Source of the DNA: an uncultured Eubacteriales bacterium
GTDB taxonomy: Bacteria; Bacillota; Clostridia; Christensenellales; CAG-138
Assembly: GCA_900318765.1 (NCBI GenBank)
Contig: ONLX01000122.1
Coordinates: forward strand, 1 to 63,307
Length of the DNA: 63,307 nucleotides
Direction: 5' to 3'
Positions within the stretch are counted from its first letter, which is position 1, and each line of letters opens with the position of its first letter. Both the position numbers and the translations under genes were made by a program. The notes under the pieces are model-generated. The model did not search any database, was not told where the DNA came from, and saw only the letters and a list, made by a program, of their open reading frames with translations. Below are positions 15,946 to 20,881 of the stretch, piece after piece.

Positions 15946-16860
15946 TTATTTCCAAAGTTCGACGGGGTATATGCCGTCATCCTGCATCTTTTTGATTGCG
16001 GCCTGGAGAATCGGCAGATCCGGCCGGTTCGTTACGCCATGCCAGCGAGCGCTCGTCGAAAGCATCTCGATCGTAATCTGTCCTTCGCGCATCATATCAT
16101 CAAGAATGCGCGGAAGCAGATATTCGCACTTGAGCGGATTCTTCTTCACGTTCTCATCGAGCCATGCCGGGAAGCGCTTCTCAAATTCATCGAGCACCAT
16201 CGGCTGCAGACCGAAAAGATTCATCGAAACCGGCGTTTCGAAGGCAAGCGGTTCCCACGTTGCGCCGTCGTCTTCGGTAAAGGCGGCTGCGTCGCCGCGC
16301 TTTTCAATCTTGAGCCGTTCGGTCAGTGTCTTCAACTTGCCGTCTTCGCCGACTTCGCACACGCCGCGCGCAACGGAGCCGTAATCCGACAGCGTATTGC
16401 CGAGCGCATAGGCGACCATCGCGTTATCGCTCGGATCCCGCTCGACGGCCAGATAGTCGTAGATTTTGCGAAATGCGTCCGCGCCGTAGAAATCGTCGGC
16501 ATTCAATACGGCGAACGGCGCATCGAGCTCATCCTTGGCACACAGAATCGCATGGGCGGTCCCCCACGGCTTCACGCGTCCCTCGGGGATGCCGTAGCCC
16601 GCGGGCAGCTTATCGGGCGTCTGATACGCGTAGACGAGATTCACAAACGGACGAATGCGCTTGCCGATGCGCTCCTCAAAATCCGCCTCGATCTCTGGCT
16701 TGATGATGCAGACGATCTTCTCAAAGCCCGCGCGTTTCGCGTCGAAAATCGAATAGTCGATGATGACGTGTCCCTGCGCATCGATCGGCTCAATCTGCTT
16801 CAGCCCGCCGAACCGGCTGCCCATCCCTGCTGCCATGATCAAAAGAATCGGTTTTTTCAT
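15946..16860 (-). CDS. sugar-phosphate nucleotidyltransferase family protein
   Basis: 304 aa. The N-terminal loop LIMAAGMGSRFGGLKQ is typical of NTP-transferase (GlmU/LicC/RmlA-like) folds. SD GAGGAGGAAAG. Starts 12 nt downstream of the DUF2156 gene. Confidence 0.75.
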   Translation of the reverse strand: MKKPILLIMAAGMGSRFGGLKQIEPIDAQGHVIIDYSIFDAKRAGFEKIVCIIKPEIEADFEERIGKRIRPFVNLVYAYQTPDKLPAGYGIPEGRVKPWGTAHAILCAKDELDAPFAVLNADDFYGADAFRKIYDYLAVERDPSDNAMVAYALGNTLSDYGSVARGVCEVGEDGKLKTLTERLKIEKRGDAAAFTEDDGATWEPLAFETPVSMNLFGLQPMVLDEFEKRFPAWLDENVKKNPLKCEYLLPRILDDMMREGQITIEMLSTSARWHGVTNRPDLPILQAAIKKMQDDGIYPVELWK

Positions 16861-16872
16861 GTCTTTCCTCCT

Positions 16873-17778
16873 CTAAAATGGTTGTATCGTGACGAGATAC
16901 TTCTCAATCAATTCCATCGGTTTATACTGGAGTTTCGAGTACCGAAGGCCGGCATCTCCTCCGTCGTCCTCCCGGTTGACCGTGTTCACATTCGGGAAGC
17001 ACTTTACGAACGCCTGTGCCATCGCAGGATACGCCCCTGCAACATCCAGCCTCGCCTTTTCAACGTGAACATACAGCGTATCCCCCTTGACTTCTCCGAC
17101 CGAAAGCGCAAGCGCTTGTCCGCCGTCGATCAGGCAGGCTGCCGTTTGCCCGAGACGCTCACGATTGTGCAAAAGCTCCCGTGCGCCGCGAAGCTCATTT
17201 TGCTCCAGAAGCGGGCTGTCGGGATGCTGTGCCACATACTCGTCCAAAAACGCCTGCGCCGTCTGTTCGATTTCCGGCGTGTTGACAATGGCGCAAACCG
17301 CATTCGGATGCTCGCGCCAGAATCGGTTCACATGGTTCTTCTGTGTATGAAGCTGCTTACCGGAGTAGGTCCGAAAGGCATTCGCATCGTACAGATAATC
17401 CGCCCAATCCCGGATGCTCTCCGCCCGGACACGTTCCCCGTACCGGTCGCGCAACACGCCGAGCGCCTCCTCAGGAACAACGCAAAAGCGGAGCGGAATA
17501 TGATTCTTTTCCGCATCACATTCGATACAATCGAACGCACGGTCAAAGTCCCCACAGCCGATCGGAACGGTGTAGCAATCCCCGTATTCCCCATAATTGG
17601 CACGAATACACAGGCAATGATCCACAACCGCAAAGTAGGAAACATAGATATTCCGCCATTGATAGACCGCCCCGATCGTATTGTCACAAATACCATAGGC
17701 ATACTGCAAAAAATACGGTTCAAGCGAAAGATTATTCTGTTCCGTCAACAAGGTGAATGTACAATCATTGGTTTCCAT
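16873..17778 (-). CDS. DUF2156 (MprF C-terminal, aminoacyl-tRNA transferase-like GNAT fold) protein
   Basis: Start chosen at METNDCTF (17778), giving about 301 aa. Resembles stand-alone lysyl-PG-synthase C-terminal-domain proteins by eye (...YSGKQLHTQKNHVNRFWREH...LYVHVEKARLDVAGAYPAMAQAF...REDDGGDAGLRYSKLQYKP). The start is uncertain, with alternatives at 17784 and 17805. Confidence 0.55.
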   Translation of the reverse strand: METNDCTFTLLTEQNNLSLEPYFLQYAYGICDNTIGAVYQWRNIYVSYFAVVDHCLCIRANYGEYGDCYTVPIGCGDFDRAFDCIECDAEKNHIPLRFCVVPEEALGVLRDRYGERVRAESIRDWADYLYDANAFRTYSGKQLHTQKNHVNRFWREHPNAVCAIVNTPEIEQTAQAFLDEYVAQHPDSPLLEQNELRGARELLHNRERLGQTAACLIDGGQALALSVGEVKGDTLYVHVEKARLDVAGAYPAMAQAFVKCFPNVNTVNREDDGGDAGLRYSKLQYKPMELIEKYLVTIQPF

Positions 17779-17914
17779 AACCATCAGTATACCACAGATT
17801 TGCATTTTGGGAAGATGCGTTTTCCAAAAAACGCGGAGATTCTGATTGGGCAAGCAAGATCTTTCGCTCGGAAGAGTATCCTTTATATAAAATATATAAA
17901 ATCGACGAAAAGGG

Positions 17915-17943
17915 TTGACTTTTTTGGTATAACATGATAAAGT
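17915..17943 (+). promoter_or_regulatory. sigma-A-type promoter with upstream A/T tract, driving the ABC-importer leader
   Basis: TTGACT (17915-17920), a 17-nt spacer, then TAAAGT (17938-17943). Preceded by the UP-like tract TTTATATAAAATATATAAAAT (17883-17903). Confidence 0.6.
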
Positions 17944-17974
17944 ACGAATACATTCCGGAAGGAAAAGGAATAGG

Positions 17975-18031
17975 ATGAGCATTCGGTTTGCATTTGCATA
18001 CGGCTACGATTACTACTTTAGAAGGAAATGA
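17975..18031 (+). CDS. putative 18-aa Tyr/Phe-rich leader peptide MSIRFAFAYGYDYYFRRK
   Basis: ATG 17975 lies 5 nt after AAGGA in the purine-rich SD region 17957-17970. Stop TGA at 18029-18031. 7 of 18 residues are aromatic. The ORF is embedded in alternative RNA helices upstream of a terminator. Confidence 0.5.
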   Translation: MSIRFAFAYGYDYYFRRK

Positions 18032-18074
18032 AGTAGCTGTTTGTGTTATCCACCGGTGCCCGACAAGGCAATCC

Positions 18075-18102
18075 GCCGCACAAATGGCTGTGCGGCTTTT
18101 TT
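18075..18102 (+). terminator. leader (attenuator) intrinsic terminator upstream of the ABC substrate-binding gene
   Basis: GCCGCACA (18075-18082) pairs with UGUGCGGC (18089-18096) around a 6-nt loop, followed by UUUUUU (18097-18102). It lies 30 nt before the ATG at 18133. Confidence 0.75.
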
Positions 18103-18132
18103 AACACCAAAATGATGACAAAGGAGTCTGTT

Positions 18133-19101
18133 ATGAAACACACCACACGTATCCTCGGTGCCGTTTTGGCGGCAATTCTGGTCCTCGGCTGTATCGGCTG
18201 CAGCGGTTCTGCCGCCACAGAATCAAAAACGACTTATACGGTCGGCATCTGCCAGCTCGTTCAGCATGACGCGCTTGACGCAGCAACCAAGGGGTTCCGC
18301 GATGCACTGACTGAAAAGCTCGGTGACAGCGTTGTATTCGTCGAGCAGAACGCATCGGGCGACTCGGCGACCTGCGCGGTGATCTGCAACCAGTTTGTCG
18401 GCGATGAAGTCGATCTGATCCTCGCCAACGCAACGCCCGCGCTGCAGGCGGCGCAGGCTGCGACGAACAAGATCCCGGTGCTTGGCACGTCCGTTACGGA
18501 TTACGGCGCGGCGCTCGGCCTCGAAAACTTCTCCGGCGCAACCGGTACGAACATCTCCGGTACCTCCGACCGCGTTCCCGAAGAGGAACAGGTAAAGATC
18601 CTCGGCGAACTCTTCCCGGATGTGAAGACCGTCGGCATTCTGTACTGCTCTGCGGAAGCGAATTCGAAAGTGCAGGCGGAAGCCTATCGCGCGGCTGCGG
18701 AAGCGCTCGGCTACACCGTTTCGGATTACACATTTGCGGATTCCAACGATCTTGCGCAGATCACCCGCACCGCGTGTGACGAATGCGATGTGCTCTATGT
18801 TCCGACCGACAATACGGCAGCCTCCAACGCGGAACTGATCAACAATGTTGCTCTGGAAACCAAGACGCCGATTCTTGCCGGCGAAGGCGATATCTGCCGC
18901 GGCTGCGGCGTTGCGACGCTGTCGATTTCCTACTACGACCTCGGCTTCGTAACAGGCAACATGGCGTATGAGATCCTTGTGAACGGCGCGGATGTTTCTG
19001 CAATGCAGGTTGAATACGCTCCGTTTACGCGGCAGTACAACGCGCCGAACTGCGCTGCGCTCGGCATCAACGTTCCTTCGGATTACAAACCGCTCGACTG
19101 A
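18133..19101 (+). CDS. ABC transporter substrate-binding lipoprotein (COG2984 / ABC_sub_bind-type)
   Basis: Start moved to ATG 18133 (MKHTTRILGAVLAAILVLGCIGCSG), with SD AAGGAG. Lipobox LGCIGC. The core YTVGICQLVQHDALDAATKGF...DLILANATPA is typical of this family. Confidence 0.8.
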   Translation: MKHTTRILGAVLAAILVLGCIGCSGSAATESKTTYTVGICQLVQHDALDAATKGFRDALTEKLGDSVVFVEQNASGDSATCAVICNQFVGDEVDLILANATPALQAAQAATNKIPVLGTSVTDYGAALGLENFSGATGTNISGTSDRVPEEEQVKILGELFPDVKTVGILYCSAEANSKVQAEAYRAAAEALGYTVSDYTFADSNDLAQITRTACDECDVLYVPTDNTAASNAELINNVALETKTPILAGEGDICRGCGVATLSISYYDLGFVTGNMAYEILVNGADVSAMQVEYAPFTRQYNAPNCAALGINVPSDYKPLD

Positions 19102-19140
19102 TTGTTTCCCCGGCGAATCTACGGAAGGAGATCGTAGTCT

Positions 19141-20088
19141 ATGGAAGCGTACTTCGCTTCGCTGAGTTTTTTGAAACTGCTGAAGAACATGCCCGGCGGA
19201 ATTGCGCAGGGGCTGATTTGGGGACTCATGGCGCTCGGAATCTACATCAGCTTCCGGCTGTTGGACGTTGCGGATCTGACCGTGGACGGATCGTTCACGA
19301 CCGGCGGGGCATGCGCGGCCATGCTGATTCTTGCAGGATGCCCCGCGTGGGTTGCGCTGCTCGTTGCAATGGCAGTCGGCTGTGTTGCGGGACTTGTGAC
19401 CGGACTGCTGCACACGAAACTCGGGATTCCGGCGATTCTCTCCGGGATCCTGACGCAATACGCGCTCTATTCGGTCAACCTCCACATCATGGGGATGGCA
19501 GCGAACAAAGCGATCAGCGTTGACCGGTACACGCTTGTCCTTTCGCTGCGTCATATCCCGCAGGCGATTCTGATCGGCGGAATCATCGTGTTGGTTGTGA
19601 TTGGACTGATGTACTGGTATTTCGGCACCGAACAAGGCTCTGCGCTCCGCGCCACCGGCAGCAATCCTGCCCTGGCCCGCGCGCTCGGCATCAGCATTGA
19701 CAATATGAAGGTGCTCGGACTCGCGATCTCAAACGGCATTGTCGCTCTCGCAGGCGGGCTCATGGCGCAGTATCAGGGCTTTGCGGATATCAATATGGGC
19801 CGCGGCGCGATCGTTATCGGTCTGGCCGCCGTTATCATCGGCGAAGTCATCGGCAGGGCGCTGCTCGGCAAGCATCTGAACTTCTTCGGCACGCTGTCCT
19901 TTGTTGCGATCGGCGGCGTCATTTACAATCTGGTCATGGTCATCGTGCTTTGGCTGAAGCTCGATTCGAACGACCTGAAGCTCTTTACGGCAATCATCGT
20001 TGCCATTTTCCTTGCCGTTCCGTATTTCAGAGACAAGGCGAAGACTTCGTTCCGCAAGAGTGCGCGGCAGGAGGCCCACCATGCTTGA
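19141..20088 (+). CDS. ABC transporter permease (LivH/BmpD-like fold)
   Basis: 315 aa with multiple TM segments. Lies between the SBP and ATPase genes, and its stop overlaps the ATPase start. Confidence 0.8.
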   Translation: MEAYFASLSFLKLLKNMPGGIAQGLIWGLMALGIYISFRLLDVADLTVDGSFTTGGACAAMLILAGCPAWVALLVAMAVGCVAGLVTGLLHTKLGIPAILSGILTQYALYSVNLHIMGMAANKAISVDRYTLVLSLRHIPQAILIGGIIVLVVIGLMYWYFGTEQGSALRATGSNPALARALGISIDNMKVLGLAISNGIVALAGGLMAQYQGFADINMGRGAIVIGLAAVIIGEVIGRALLGKHLNFFGTLSFVAIGGVIYNLVMVIVLWLKLDSNDLKLFTAIIVAIFLAVPYFRDKAKTSFRKSARQEAHHA

Positions 20089-20881
20089 GATTTTGCATTT
20101 GTACAAAACCTTCAATCCCGGAACGATCAATGAGAAAAAAGCCATTGTGGATCTCTCGCTTCACCTTGCGCCGGGCGACTTTGTCACCGTTATCGGCGGA
20201 AACGGCGCAGGTAAGTCGACTTTACTGAACGCCGTCGCGGGCGTCTGGCCCGTGGACAGCGGACGAATCCTCCTCGATGGGAAGGACGTAACCGCGCTTC
20301 CCGAGCACAAGCGGGCAGCTTACATCGGCCGTGTCTTCCAGGACCCGATCATGGGAACCGCTCCGAATATGCAGATTGAGGAAAACCTCGCGCTCGCGCT
20401 GCGGCGCGGCGAACATCGCGGGCTGCGTTGGGGCGTCACCAAGAAAGAACGGGAAGAATACCGCGAGCGGCTCAAAATCCTCGGTCTCGGGCTTGAAGAT
20501 CGATTGACCGTAAAGGTCGGTCTGCTCTCCGGCGGACAACGCCAAGCGCTGACGCTGCTGATGGCGTCGCTCAAGAAGCCGAAGCTGCTGCTGCTCGACG
20601 AGCACACCGCCGCGCTGGATCCGGTTACCGCTGCGAAAGTTCTGGAGCTGAGCGACCGCATCATTGCCGAAAGCAACCTGACCGCATTGATGATCACGCA
20701 CAACATGACGGATGCAATCACGCACGGCAATCGACTGATCATGATGGACGAAGGACATATCATTCTCGATATCTCCGGTGAGGACAAGCGAAAGCTCACC
20801 AAGCGCGATCTGATGGAGCGATTTGCAGCCGTTGCAGGGTATGCGCTTGAAAACGATCAAACGTTGCTGACAAAAGATTAA
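20081..20881 (+). CDS. ABC transporter ATP-binding protein
   Basis: Start moved to ATG 20081 (MLEILHLYKTF). Walker A GGNGAGKST, signature LSGGQRQ and Walker B LLLLDEHTAALD. Confidence 0.9.
   Translation: MLEILHLYKTFNPGTINEKKAIVDLSLHLAPGDFVTVIGGNGAGKSTLLNAVAGVWPVDSGRILLDGKDVTALPEHKRAAYIGRVFQDPIMGTAPNMQIEENLALALRRGEHRGLRWGVTKKEREEYRERLKILGLGLEDRLTVKVGLLSGGQRQALTLLMASLKKPKLLLLDEHTAALDPVTAAKVLELSDRIIAESNLTALMITHNMTDAITHGNRLIMMDEGHIILDISGEDKRKLTKRDLMERFAAVAGYALENDQTLLTKD

Follow-up and report, generated by a model that had tools for sequence, protein, structure and literature searches.

The leader of a COG2984-type ABC importer operon, lying in a 63,307-nucleotide stretch of DNA (the window, which here means that whole stretch), is probably a ribosome-mediated leader-peptide transcription attenuator that senses the charging of Tyr- and Phe-tRNA. 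Judged from sequence, this most likely represents the classical trp/pheA attenuator logic, here in gut Clostridia and serving a transporter. A promoter-proximal small open reading frame (sORF) rich in Tyr and Phe codons is followed by three alternative RNA helices and an intrinsic terminator, and the same arrangement recurs upstream of related importer operons.

Leader architecture and alternative folds

The initial annotation had placed in this region a promoter, a Shine–Dalgarno (SD) region and an 18-codon sORF with 4 Tyr and 3 Phe codons, all of which direct reading recovers; the terminator that it described, with its U6 tract, and the SD and ATG of the substrate-binding protein gene are likewise present (Table 1). 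The promoter, which is also listed by a consensus scan, carries TG at 17935–17936 and thus has an extended −10 element, from which transcription would start at about 17950. The sORF begins 31 nt past the −10 element, its SD and start being promoter-proximal, and 7 of its 18 codons specify Tyr or Phe; the terminator is situated between this sORF and the first structural gene. A scan of the 63-kb window found no other amino-acid-biased sORF followed by a terminator.

Table 1. Positions in the window of the leader elements and of the importer genes
Feature	Start	End	Strand	Details
Promoter	17915	17943	+	−35 TTGACT 17915–17920; 17-nt spacer; extended −10 TGaTAAAGT 17935–17943
sORF Shine–Dalgarno	17957	17970	+	Purine-rich; best-spaced match AAGGA 17965–17969, 5 nt 5′ of the ATG
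Leader sORF	17975	18031	+	18 codons, MSIRFAFAYGYDYYFRRK; stop UGA 18029–18031
Regulatory codon cluster	17987	18019	+	F5, F7, Y9, Y11, Y13, Y14, F15
Segment 1, predicted anti-antiterminator 5′ strand	17995	18007	+	Inside the Tyr codons; in the MFE structure
Segment 2	18033	18046	+	Partner is segment 1 or segment 3; conserved core GUUUGUG
Segment 3, predicted antiterminator 3′ strand	18078	18091	+	Spans most of the terminator 5′ arm, the loop and 3 nt of the 3′ arm
Intrinsic terminator	18075	18102	+	GCCGCACA 18075–18082 with UGUGCGGC 18089–18096; 6-nt loop; U6 18097–18102
Binding-protein gene SD	18121	18126	+	AAGGAG, read directly; ATG 18133
Substrate-binding lipoprotein	18133	19101	+	PF04392, COG2984 type; Glu251/Tyr267 correspond to the tyrosine-selectivity residues in CD0873
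ABC permease	19141	20088	+	PF02653 domain match
ABC ATPase	20081	20881	+	PF00005; 5′ end overlaps the permease gene 3′ end

The leader RNA can form three helices from four segments. In helix 1:2, as proposed, ACGGCUAC (18000–18007) pairs with GUAGCUGU (18033–18040); this helix is part of the minimum-free-energy (MFE) structure, where it is extended by the pairing of 17995–17998 with 18042–18045. In helix 2:3, 18033–18046 pairs with 18078–18091 at 14 of 14 positions, G–U pairs included, and excludes the terminator hairpin (3:4). The element energies are −14.2 kcal/mol for 1:2, −21.2 kcal/mol for 2:3 and −14.0 kcal/mol for 3:4, and the antiterminator fold of the window leader is more stable than its shuffles (z = −2.3).

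When the energies of the alternative structures are compared, nascent RNA folded without a ribosome forms 1:2 and leaves segment 3 free, and placing the ribosomal A-site at Tyr9 makes the 2:3 antiterminator the MFE structure. In the full leader with segment 1 masked, the terminator is still the thermodynamic winner, so the choice between helices would have to be kinetic. Under one footprint setting, the 5′ part of the sORF could replace segment 3 as the partner of segment 2. The geometry in the window fits a ribosome-operated switch: segment 2 starts 2 nt past the stop codon, so that a terminating ribosome would cover it, and 14 nt past the last aromatic codon, so that a stalled ribosome would leave it free. 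The segment 2 strand derived from the folds begins 2 nt further, at 4 nt past the stop and 16 nt past the last aromatic codon. The predicted 1:2, 2:3 and 3:4 layout held up in every computational test that was run.

We propose that transcription would begin at about 17950 from the conserved promoter and that a ribosome would load on the sORF at 17975. With Tyr- and Phe-tRNA well charged, this ribosome would reach the UGA codon and its footprint would cover segment 2, which would re-pair with segment 1 after ribosome release. In either state, covered or re-paired, segment 2 would permit the 3:4 hairpin (18075–18096) to form and RNA polymerase would stop at the U-tract, with termination at 18102 giving a leader RNA of about 150 nt. 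Were charged Tyr- or Phe-tRNA scarce, the ribosome would stall on the Tyr and Phe codons at 17987–18019, masking segment 1 and leaving segment 2 exposed; the exposed strand would then pair with nascent 18078–18091, no terminator would form, and polymerase would read through into the importer genes. An untranslated sORF would allow 1:2 to form and would therefore lead to termination by default.

Such a scheme depends on how transcription and translation are coordinated. In Bacillus subtilis the two processes are reportedly uncoupled for the most part, and if Clostridia resemble it in this respect, a coupled mechanism is less self-evident. The family of leaders proposed below, if real, would imply that ribosome–RNA polymerase coordination suffices for classical attenuation in these Bacillota. 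The leader is also a natural test case for transcription–translation coordination in Clostridia. The mechanism itself would follow the textbook scheme, which limits the conceptual surprise, and the short conserved leader is a potential reporter of Tyr/Phe starvation.

The leader across orthologous operons

Two types of comparison bear on the proposal, one of the sORF and its surroundings and the other of the paired strands. For the first, F/Y-rich mini-ORFs together with the same alternative helices do occur in related operons, a recurrence that the initial annotation had named as a check. Of 94 orthologous loci, 32 (about one third) have an F/Y-rich sORF and a terminator in the corresponding position. 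The sources of these 32 loci are metagenome-assembled genomes of Oscillospiraceae and of further Clostridia, plus two contigs that carry the labels Sphaerochaetaceae and Bacteroidaceae, and their binding proteins are 55–82% identical to that of the window. About two thirds of the orthologues, mostly in Lachnospiraceae, are without the leader, and a search of the loci lacking a detected leader for UUUGUG(C/U) plus GC(C/U)GCAC(A/G) gave no extra members. Among SD-preceded sORFs in 1.1 Mb comprising the window and the loci, those with at least 6 F/Y in 10 codons number 11 among the 108 that lie in the operon family's leader zone, versus 2 among the 3,660 outside it.

The encoded peptides differ in order and length (for example FFAAYYYRYYF, FAYAYGYYYYF, FSFYYYFRF and FGFGFFF), and both synonymous codons are used across the relatives for Phe (TTT 63, TTC 31) as well as for Tyr (TAT 39, TAC 41), a pattern that fits selection for the codon class and not for a particular RNA or peptide sequence. 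By contrast with this variety, the SD, ATG and reading frame are preserved in all leaders, with GGAGG or AAGGA before the start in the alignment. Each of the 16 core relatives has the promoter, TTGACT-17-TA(A/C)AGT, at 27–31 nt 5′ of the sORF start codon, and the terminator is present in 23 of 23 leaders checked. Also preserved among the relatives are the antiterminator, the terminator and two spacings, one between promoter and ATG and the other between aromatic cluster and segment 2. In most of 28 distinct leaders the 5′ strand of the antiterminator begins 12–16 nt past the last aromatic codon. The length of the sORF ranges across the family from 18 to about 56 codons, and its stop codon lies between 14 nt before and 42 nt after the start of segment 2 in the relatives, some of which have an sORF that runs through segment 2; in every case a terminating ribosome could cover segment 2.

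For the second comparison, we scored the pairing of 16 core leaders against a structure derived from the window sequence itself. On this basis the terminator is paired in 98% of alignment cells, with two covarying pairs (C–G to U–A and A–U to G–C), and helix 1:2 in 85%, versus 29–55% when its partner is slid. The antiterminator is paired in 86% of cells, a value that column shuffles reach in 58 of 500 cases, and its core in 97%; slid-partner controls over all three helices give 16–58%. Covariation is modest, few pairs being altered on both sides. RNAalifold, unaided, predicts 1:2 plus 3:4; given an alignment truncated to leave out segments 1 and 4, it predicts 2:3. Among the 28 distinct leaders the transcript preceding the terminator has a mean z of −1.9 against shuffles, with values below −1 in 22.

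Two elements of the originally proposed pairing scheme are narrower than they appeared in the window. The 14-bp helix 2:3 is fully paired there, but its outer part, reaching into the terminator loop, is retained only in the closest relatives; what the relatives keep is the core, UUUGUG(U/C) with GCACA(A/G)A. Similarly, CUACUU (18013–18018), suggested as an alternative to segment 1, is indeed complementary to AAGUAG (18031–18036), but the full pairing is restricted to the window and three relatives (L082, L086 and L093) and is partial elsewhere. One compensatory A–U to G–C change occurs within it in L082, and we treat it as a probable minor local alternative. For some of the more distant leaders, folding does not place helix 1:2 over the aromatic zone.

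We give an even chance to the broader reading that these leaders constitute an undescribed, widespread Tyr/Phe attenuator family of gut and rumen Oscillospiraceae, other Clostridia and Sphaerochaetaceae-labelled contigs, in which the F:Y ratio, sORF length and stop position have been repeatedly retuned.

Alternative explanations

Could a protein control these operons, with the sORF playing no sensing part? A promoter repressor would suit the perfect palindrome ACTTTAGCAC-N5-GTGCTAAAGT that spans the −35 and −10 elements in several relatives, although in the window this is reduced to ACTTT...AAAGT, and, as to an RNA-binding antiterminator protein, a check by eye showed no TRAP-like repeated triplets. 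Orthologues with neither leader nor T-box exist, so some other regulation is necessary there, and protein-mediated control could also be an extra layer over attenuation. A protein-only model, however, leaves unexplained both the conserved F/Y sORF and its fixed distance to segment 2, and we consider control by a protein improbable.

The sORF could instead act through its peptide, as in arrest of the TnaC or Erm-leader type, with stalling caused by free Tyr or Phe, translation stress or antibiotics. Stalling leaders (those of bmrB, vmlR and hflX) are the better documented Firmicute type, and R-F-(A/S)-F-A-Y-G or A-(L/V)-R-F recurs before the aromatic cluster in many leaders. Yet the RF and AYG motifs are restricted to subgroups and no arrest motif is family-wide, the common feature being F/Y richness; moreover, the codons for RF and AYG overlap segment 1 and its flank, so that RNA pairing explains their conservation. 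Sensing of free amino acids would induce the importer amid plentiful substrate, which makes little physiological sense, and none of the downstream genes is a resistance gene. On these grounds peptide arrest seems to us quite improbable as the sensor. The recurrent R-F...A-Y-G motif might add a nascent-chain effect to stalling of the kind we propose.

An RNA-only sensor, either a riboswitch or a tRNA-binding element that contacts its ligand directly while the mini-ORF is incidental, would account for the conserved nucleotides GCAUACGGCU, GUUUGUG and GCCGCACA and the alternative helices, and paralogues of this transporter are under T-box control. Several lines of evidence make it very unlikely. 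First, Rfam was searched, as the initial annotation had suggested, with the entire window at the gathering threshold and with positions 17600–18400 at E up to 10; the only hits were noise far below threshold (DicF, DLEU2_4 and sR3), and no riboswitch, T-box or leader family matched the region. Scans of 40 related loci placed no Rfam family in any leader, and the curated leader families (Phe, Trp, His, Leu, Thr, leu/phe and others) matched neither the window nor 20 leader-bearing loci. The T-box model RF00230 was silent on the window leader, both at the gathering threshold and with E values allowed up to 10, while the same model readily detects T-boxes on the opposite strand in two related loci, L026 and L044; a strict T-box sequence pattern found nothing in 80 upstream regions. 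Second, no conserved multi-helix core resembling a ligand pocket is visible, and the conserved nucleotides coincide exactly with the strands of the three switching helices. Third, the SD, ATG and frame are constant, as is the position of the promoter with respect to the ATG, whereas peptide order, length and synonymous codons vary.

Finally, an ordinary 5′ UTR hairpin next to a fortuitous small ORF, for which one could cite a whole-leader fold only modestly better than shuffles (z = −1.7) and terminator-like sites whose frequency in the region does not exceed that in shuffles, is contradicted by the recurrence in 32 loci and by the sORF enrichment (11/108 versus 2/3,660), and its probability is negligible.

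Importer substrate and relation to known systems

The attenuator reading predicts an aromatic substrate, and the importer genes point the same way. PF04392, PF02653 and ABC ATPase genes stand in one operon whose order is shared with relatives. The suggestion of aromatic import made from the leader is matched by homology of the binding protein to three solved proteins, the tyrosine-binding CD0873 (6HNI), the tryptophan-binding 3LFT and the phenylalanine-binding 3LKV, with CD0873 the closest (E = 6e-50). Glu263 and Tyr279, which have roles in the tyrosine selectivity of CD0873 (PMC6816091), align without gaps to E251 and Y267, and both are invariant in the 94 orthologues. Judged by these residues, the pocket is specifically of the tyrosine type. 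CD0873–CD0875 is a tyrosine ABC importer of Clostridioides difficile (PDB 6HNI; PMC6816091), and the window binding protein is, like CD0873, a predicted lipoprotein with the same Glu/Tyr selectivity residues. Tyrosine is the most likely substrate of the importer, perhaps together with phenylalanine. Many leaders are Phe-dominated, yet all 94 orthologues have one and the same Gly-Glu...Tyr pocket, and this identity makes a correlation between leader F:Y ratio and pocket residues impossible. Apart from any argument by homology, the leader hints through its regulation that this PF04392 importer, a very common one in Clostridia of the gut and rumen, may serve Tyr and/or Phe uptake. This bears on how the microbiome metabolises aromatic amino acids, for instance on its production of p-cresol and phenolic acids.

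We found no published description of a Tyr/Phe leader upstream of this importer family. The predicted leader shares with Escherichia coli pheL–pheA, pheM–pheST, trpL and hisL a promoter-proximal sORF with regulatory codons, the 1:2, 2:3 and 3:4 helices and an intrinsic terminator, as well as a logic in which stalling favours the antiterminator and the stop position lets a terminating ribosome cover segment 2. Unlike those leaders, to which it has no sequence or covariance-model similarity, it uses in the window a mixture of Tyr and Phe codons, its hosts are Clostridia, and its target is an importer and not a biosynthetic or tRNA-synthetase operon. It would thus work like the Rfam leader families while being a member of none. 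A Tyr-rich leader is unusual in any phylum. Another close likeness is the F-Y-F leader aroR upstream of aroF in Corynebacterium glutamicum, for which ribosome-mediated attenuation and a response to Phe, not Tyr, are reported (Neshat et al. 2014, from the summary in PMC11802643). The two share a mixed Phe/Tyr leader peptide, an aromatic amino-acid gene and a Gram-positive host, and they differ in that aroR has three aromatic codons and a biosynthetic target in an actinobacterium, whereas the leaders described here have 6–9 aromatic residues, are often Tyr-dominated and precede a transporter.

The initial annotation called leader-peptide attenuators classic in Proteobacteria and Firmicute amino-acid genes mostly T-box or protein-controlled; as a refinement, such attenuators are rare in Firmicutes, yet precedents exist in the phylum. 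The Lactococcus leu/phe leader is a known example. Others are a His leader in bacilli (PMC2965389), the Leu-rich ilv-leu leader of Staphylococcus aureus (PMC5794164) and, in Acholeplasma, a Phe uORF upstream of aroF (uORFC-13-1; PMC8632094). Amino-acid-specific, ribosome-mediated attenuation in the same phylum is what they would have in common with the present leader; they concern other amino acids, genes and lineages, none is on a PF04392 importer or in Oscillospiraceae, and the Rfam scan matched none of them. The leaders described here would therefore add a well-populated amino-acid-specific attenuator to a phylum in which such elements are considered rare and T-boxes dominant.

The transporter family also has T-box-regulated members, in line with the initial annotation: the Streptococcus suis trpXYZ importer is under a Trp T-box (PMC9382623). 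The proposed attenuator resembles that system in the transporter family, in the induction of uptake by uncharged cognate tRNA and in its terminator/antiterminator output. It differs in that the trpXYZ T-box contacts tRNA directly, whereas the sensor proposed here is the translating ribosome, and the window leader has no T-box elements. A T-box adjoins the Tyr-type operon in both L026 and L044, and in L026 it precedes a paralogue of the importer. Should the broader family reading hold, the same genomes would rely on the translating ribosome as sensor for the Tyr paralogue of a single transporter family and on a T-box for its Trp paralogue.

Elements of the leader and its operon

By direct reading, the promoter, the Shine–Dalgarno (SD) stretch, the small ORF (sORF), the alternative helices formed by RNA segments 1–4, the terminal U6 and the SD and ATG of the binding-protein gene all lie in the window where the initial annotation, which proposed a Tyr/Phe leader-peptide attenuator, had placed them (table below). 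Helix 1:2, lengthened by 17995-98/18042-45, belongs to the minimum-free-energy fold of the leader, and a scan of the 63-kb window found no other amino-acid-biased sORF with a terminator after it. Because the gene upstream is divergent, the terminator cannot be its own and must lie within the 5′ leader of the importer operon.

Features of the leader and adjoining genes in the window
Feature	Position	Details
Promoter −35	17915-20	TTGACT; 17-nt spacer to −10; direct reading and consensus scan
Promoter −10	17938-43	TAAAGT; TG two bases upstream (extended −10); direct reading and consensus scan
Purine-rich SD stretch	17957-70	AAGGA five bases ahead of the sORF ATG
sORF	ATG 17975, stop 18029-31	Peptide MSIRFAFAYGYDYYFRRK
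Helix 1:2 (anti-antiterminator)	18000-07 with 18033-40	ACGGCUAC with GUAGCUGU
Helix 2:3 (antiterminator)	18033-46 with 18078-91	14/14 positions paired
Helix 3:4 (terminator)	18075-82/18089-96	Followed by U6
SD of binding-protein gene	18121-26	AAGGAG, ahead of ATG 18133
PF04392 substrate-binding lipoprotein	18133-19101	Downstream of leader
PF02653 permease	19141-20088	Downstream of leader
ABC ATPase	20081-20881	Downstream of leader
LPG_synthase_C-domain protein	Start near 17778	Minus strand; upstream, divergent

In the closest relatives (L082-L085 and L091), the LPG_synthase_C-domain protein and a nucleotidyltransferase (window 15946-17778, minus strand) are syntenic with the importer. Ahead of the divergent genes, a promoter-like site (17813-17786) stops only about 8 nt short of the likely start codon, which suggests that the 5′ UTR there is very short or absent.

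Leaders in related operons

Scanning one genome per species gave 80 loci with binding proteins 54–65% identical to that of the window, and a look-up of closer database homologues added 13 at 67–82% identity. Across these 94 loci (the window and 93 relatives), upstream regions were searched for SD-preceded small ORFs and terminators. The F/Y-rich mini-ORF described in the window recurs among the orthologous operons: it is present in 32 of the 94 loci, 140–270 nt upstream of the binding-protein start, with a terminator 50–79 nt past the stop codon in the 23 leaders where one was explicitly located. Among SD-preceded sORFs on both strands of the 1.1 Mb comprising window and loci, at least 6 F/Y in any 10 codons were found in 11 of 108 in the leader zone versus 2 of 3660 outside it.

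Leader peptides of related loci
Locus	Peptide
L082	MTSNRFAFAYGYYYCFRK
L083	MAFGFAYAYGYYYYFSED
L084	MAVRFAYAYGYYYYFSNR
L086	MSLSFAASYGYYFYFPSRK
L087	MFFRFAAAYRYYRYFKGK
L089	MNRSFSFAYRYYRYFDRK
L091	MTHLYAFGFGFFFSNCQPAVCA
L093	MSGFRFAYATSYYYYYRLDDSGLRCK
L001	MKADFFAAYYYRYYFTKR
L003	MFKFRFAFAYGFTYYFFRSCNSHLCCN
L034	...NFSFYYYFRFPRCFV
L040	...LFSSYFYFYFRS...
L056	...RFSFAFFYFFTSKTK

Judged from these sequences, what is conserved is the codon class rather than the sequence. F and Y come in a different order from leader to leader, the sORF has between 18 and about 56 codons, and all synonymous codons are in use (TTT 63, TTC 31, TAT 39, TAC 41); the few conserved residues (A-Y-G, R-F) map onto segment 1 and the bases flanking it. 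In 16/16 core leaders, TTGACT-17-TA(A/C)AGT lies 27–31 nt upstream of the sORF ATG, leaving a short 5′ UTR that holds only the SD, as expected of a translated leader.

The promoters of L001, L002, L089, L093 and L013 also contain a perfect palindrome, ACTTTAGCAC-N5-GTGCTAAAGT, whose arms are the −35 and −10, and of which window 17918-17943 retains only ACTTT...AAAGT. A DNA-binding regulator might use it as an operator, adding a layer of control to attenuation.

A long-leader variant of 50–56 codons ends in ...ALRFYFFVFFF... (L012, L017, L029, L039, L059 and L071); the Phe-rich pattern ...A(L/V)RFYFF.F.F... stands near the C terminus in these loci (L029 together with L033) and in L044 and L026. 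These leaders have a strong terminator about 35–50 nt before the binding-protein gene (about 73 nt in L044) and a very stably folded N-terminal coding part (−36 to −56 kcal/mol).

Leader hosts are labelled Oscillospiraceae, Candidatus Limivicinus, Papillibacter and ‘Clostridia bacterium’ MAGs, and two leader-bearing contigs are labelled Sphaerochaetaceae and Bacteroidaceae. The latter (L034 and L040) encode binding proteins about 60% identical to that of the window, which points to horizontal transfer of operon and leader or to mis-binned contigs. Most Lachnospiraceae orthologues have neither a leader element nor a T-box on the relevant strand. L081 is 97–100% identical to window 16987-19330 up to about 18580, midway through the binding-protein gene, and then 68–77% and lower, reflecting either a recombination breakpoint within the gene or a chimeric contig. 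L092 and L093 have identical binding proteins; upstream of position 1001, L092 carries about 170 nt extra between leader terminator and gene, possibly a small insertion element.

Mutually exclusive helices

All three helices are maintained in an alignment of 16 core leaders, in which pairing was counted against controls with the partner strand slid by 1–3 columns. Paired cells amount to 98.4% for the terminator (slid, 16–51%), 85.4% for the anti-antiterminator (29–55%) and 86.1% for the antiterminator (30–58%), whose core, UUUGUG(U/C) with GCACA(A/G)A, reaches 97.3%. The terminator covaries (C-G to U-A, A-U to G-C), and segment 2 and the terminator loop change while preserving pairing: AGCUG/UGGCU in the window, AGUCG/UGACU in L084 and GUCG/CGAC in L087. 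Unguided, RNAalifold predicts 1:2 plus the terminator; once segments 1 and 4 are trimmed from the alignment, its prediction is the antiterminator. With the eight closest sequences, the 2:3 helix it recovers reaches into the terminator loop, as originally proposed.

We also folded 28 distinct leaders individually, among them distant ones whose terminators are unrelated in sequence. Each folded stretch began 12 nt beyond the last aromatic codon and ran through the terminator loop. Upstream RNA pairs with 7–16 nt of the terminator 5′ arm and loop, and these pre-terminator folds exceed shuffles in stability (mean z −1.9; 22/28 below −1 and 14/28 below −2). The upstream antiterminator strand starts 12–16 nt past the aromatic cluster in most of the 28, and the stop codon falls between 14 nt before that start and 42 nt after it, so that a ribosome at the stop always covers the strand.

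In the window, the element energies are −14.2 (1:2), −21.2 (2:3) and −14.0 (3:4) kcal/mol. The folds follow the switch that the initial annotation envisaged: without a ribosome, the nascent RNA is predicted to take 1:2, with segment 3 free, and with a footprint centred on Tyr9 the minimum-free-energy structure is the antiterminator. In the complete leader, the terminator state has at least as favourable an energy even with segment 1 masked, so the choice has to be kinetic, like that of the trp attenuator. In one footprint setting, segment 2 could pair with the sORF 5′ end and not with segment 3.

Mechanism, substrate and known systems

Classical ribosome-mediated attenuation, as first proposed, is the best-supported explanation of the sequence elements, conservation, alternative pairings and geometry found computationally, and we consider it probable. 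Transcription would start at the promoter, the sORF would be translated and stalling would provide a response to Tyr/Phe. The functional scheme is that of pheL/trpL; for mixed Phe/Tyr codons, the C. glutamicum aroR leader comes closest among known systems. Leader-peptide attenuators are indeed uncommon in Firmicutes, but not without precedent: bacilli have a His leader (PMC2965389), S. aureus a Leu leader and Acholeplasma a Phe uORF before aroF.

Across the 63-kb window, nothing scores at or above an Rfam gathering threshold, whether riboswitch, tRNA or rRNA, and relaxing the scan over 17600-18400 brought up noise alone, leaving no known riboswitch or T-box in the leader region. The leader is outside every curated leader family, yet works like them. 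No published description was found in the literature searched, whose coverage was incomplete; the attenuator family is solid, widespread and apparently not annotated so far. The mechanism itself is the textbook model, and the family helps to annotate a common gut-bacterial importer.

The solved structures closest to the binding protein are CD0873 of C. difficile (6HNI, E = 6e-50), SP1069 (3LFT) and VC_1101 (3LKV), which bind tyrosine, tryptophan and phenylalanine, respectively (PMC6816091), in keeping with the aromatic amino-acid import initially suggested. Two residues set selectivity: the Tyr binder has Glu263/Tyr279, the Phe binder Ala/Tyr and the Trp binder Ala/Gln (PMC6816091). A gap-free alignment places E251 and Y267 of the window protein at the Glu263/Tyr279 positions of CD0873, and their equivalents are invariant in 94/94 orthologues, which marks the importer as a predicted tyrosine type, in agreement with the Tyr-codon-rich leader. 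The abundant Phe codons, dominant in some relatives, suggest that the leader senses Phe too and that the importer perhaps carries it as well.

The link of this transporter family to T-boxes holds for paralogues: the trpXYZ importer is under T-box control, unlike the operon in the window with its leader sORF. T-boxes in L026 (2228-2478, minus strand) and L044 (2219-2466, minus strand) stand before an operon for a PF04392 ABC paralogue, which is transcribed away from the Tyr-type operon with its leader sORF. Their specifier region can be read as GAA-UGG-A (Trp); if this reading is right, two paralogues in one genome would be controlled differently, one by a T-box and one by a leader peptide.
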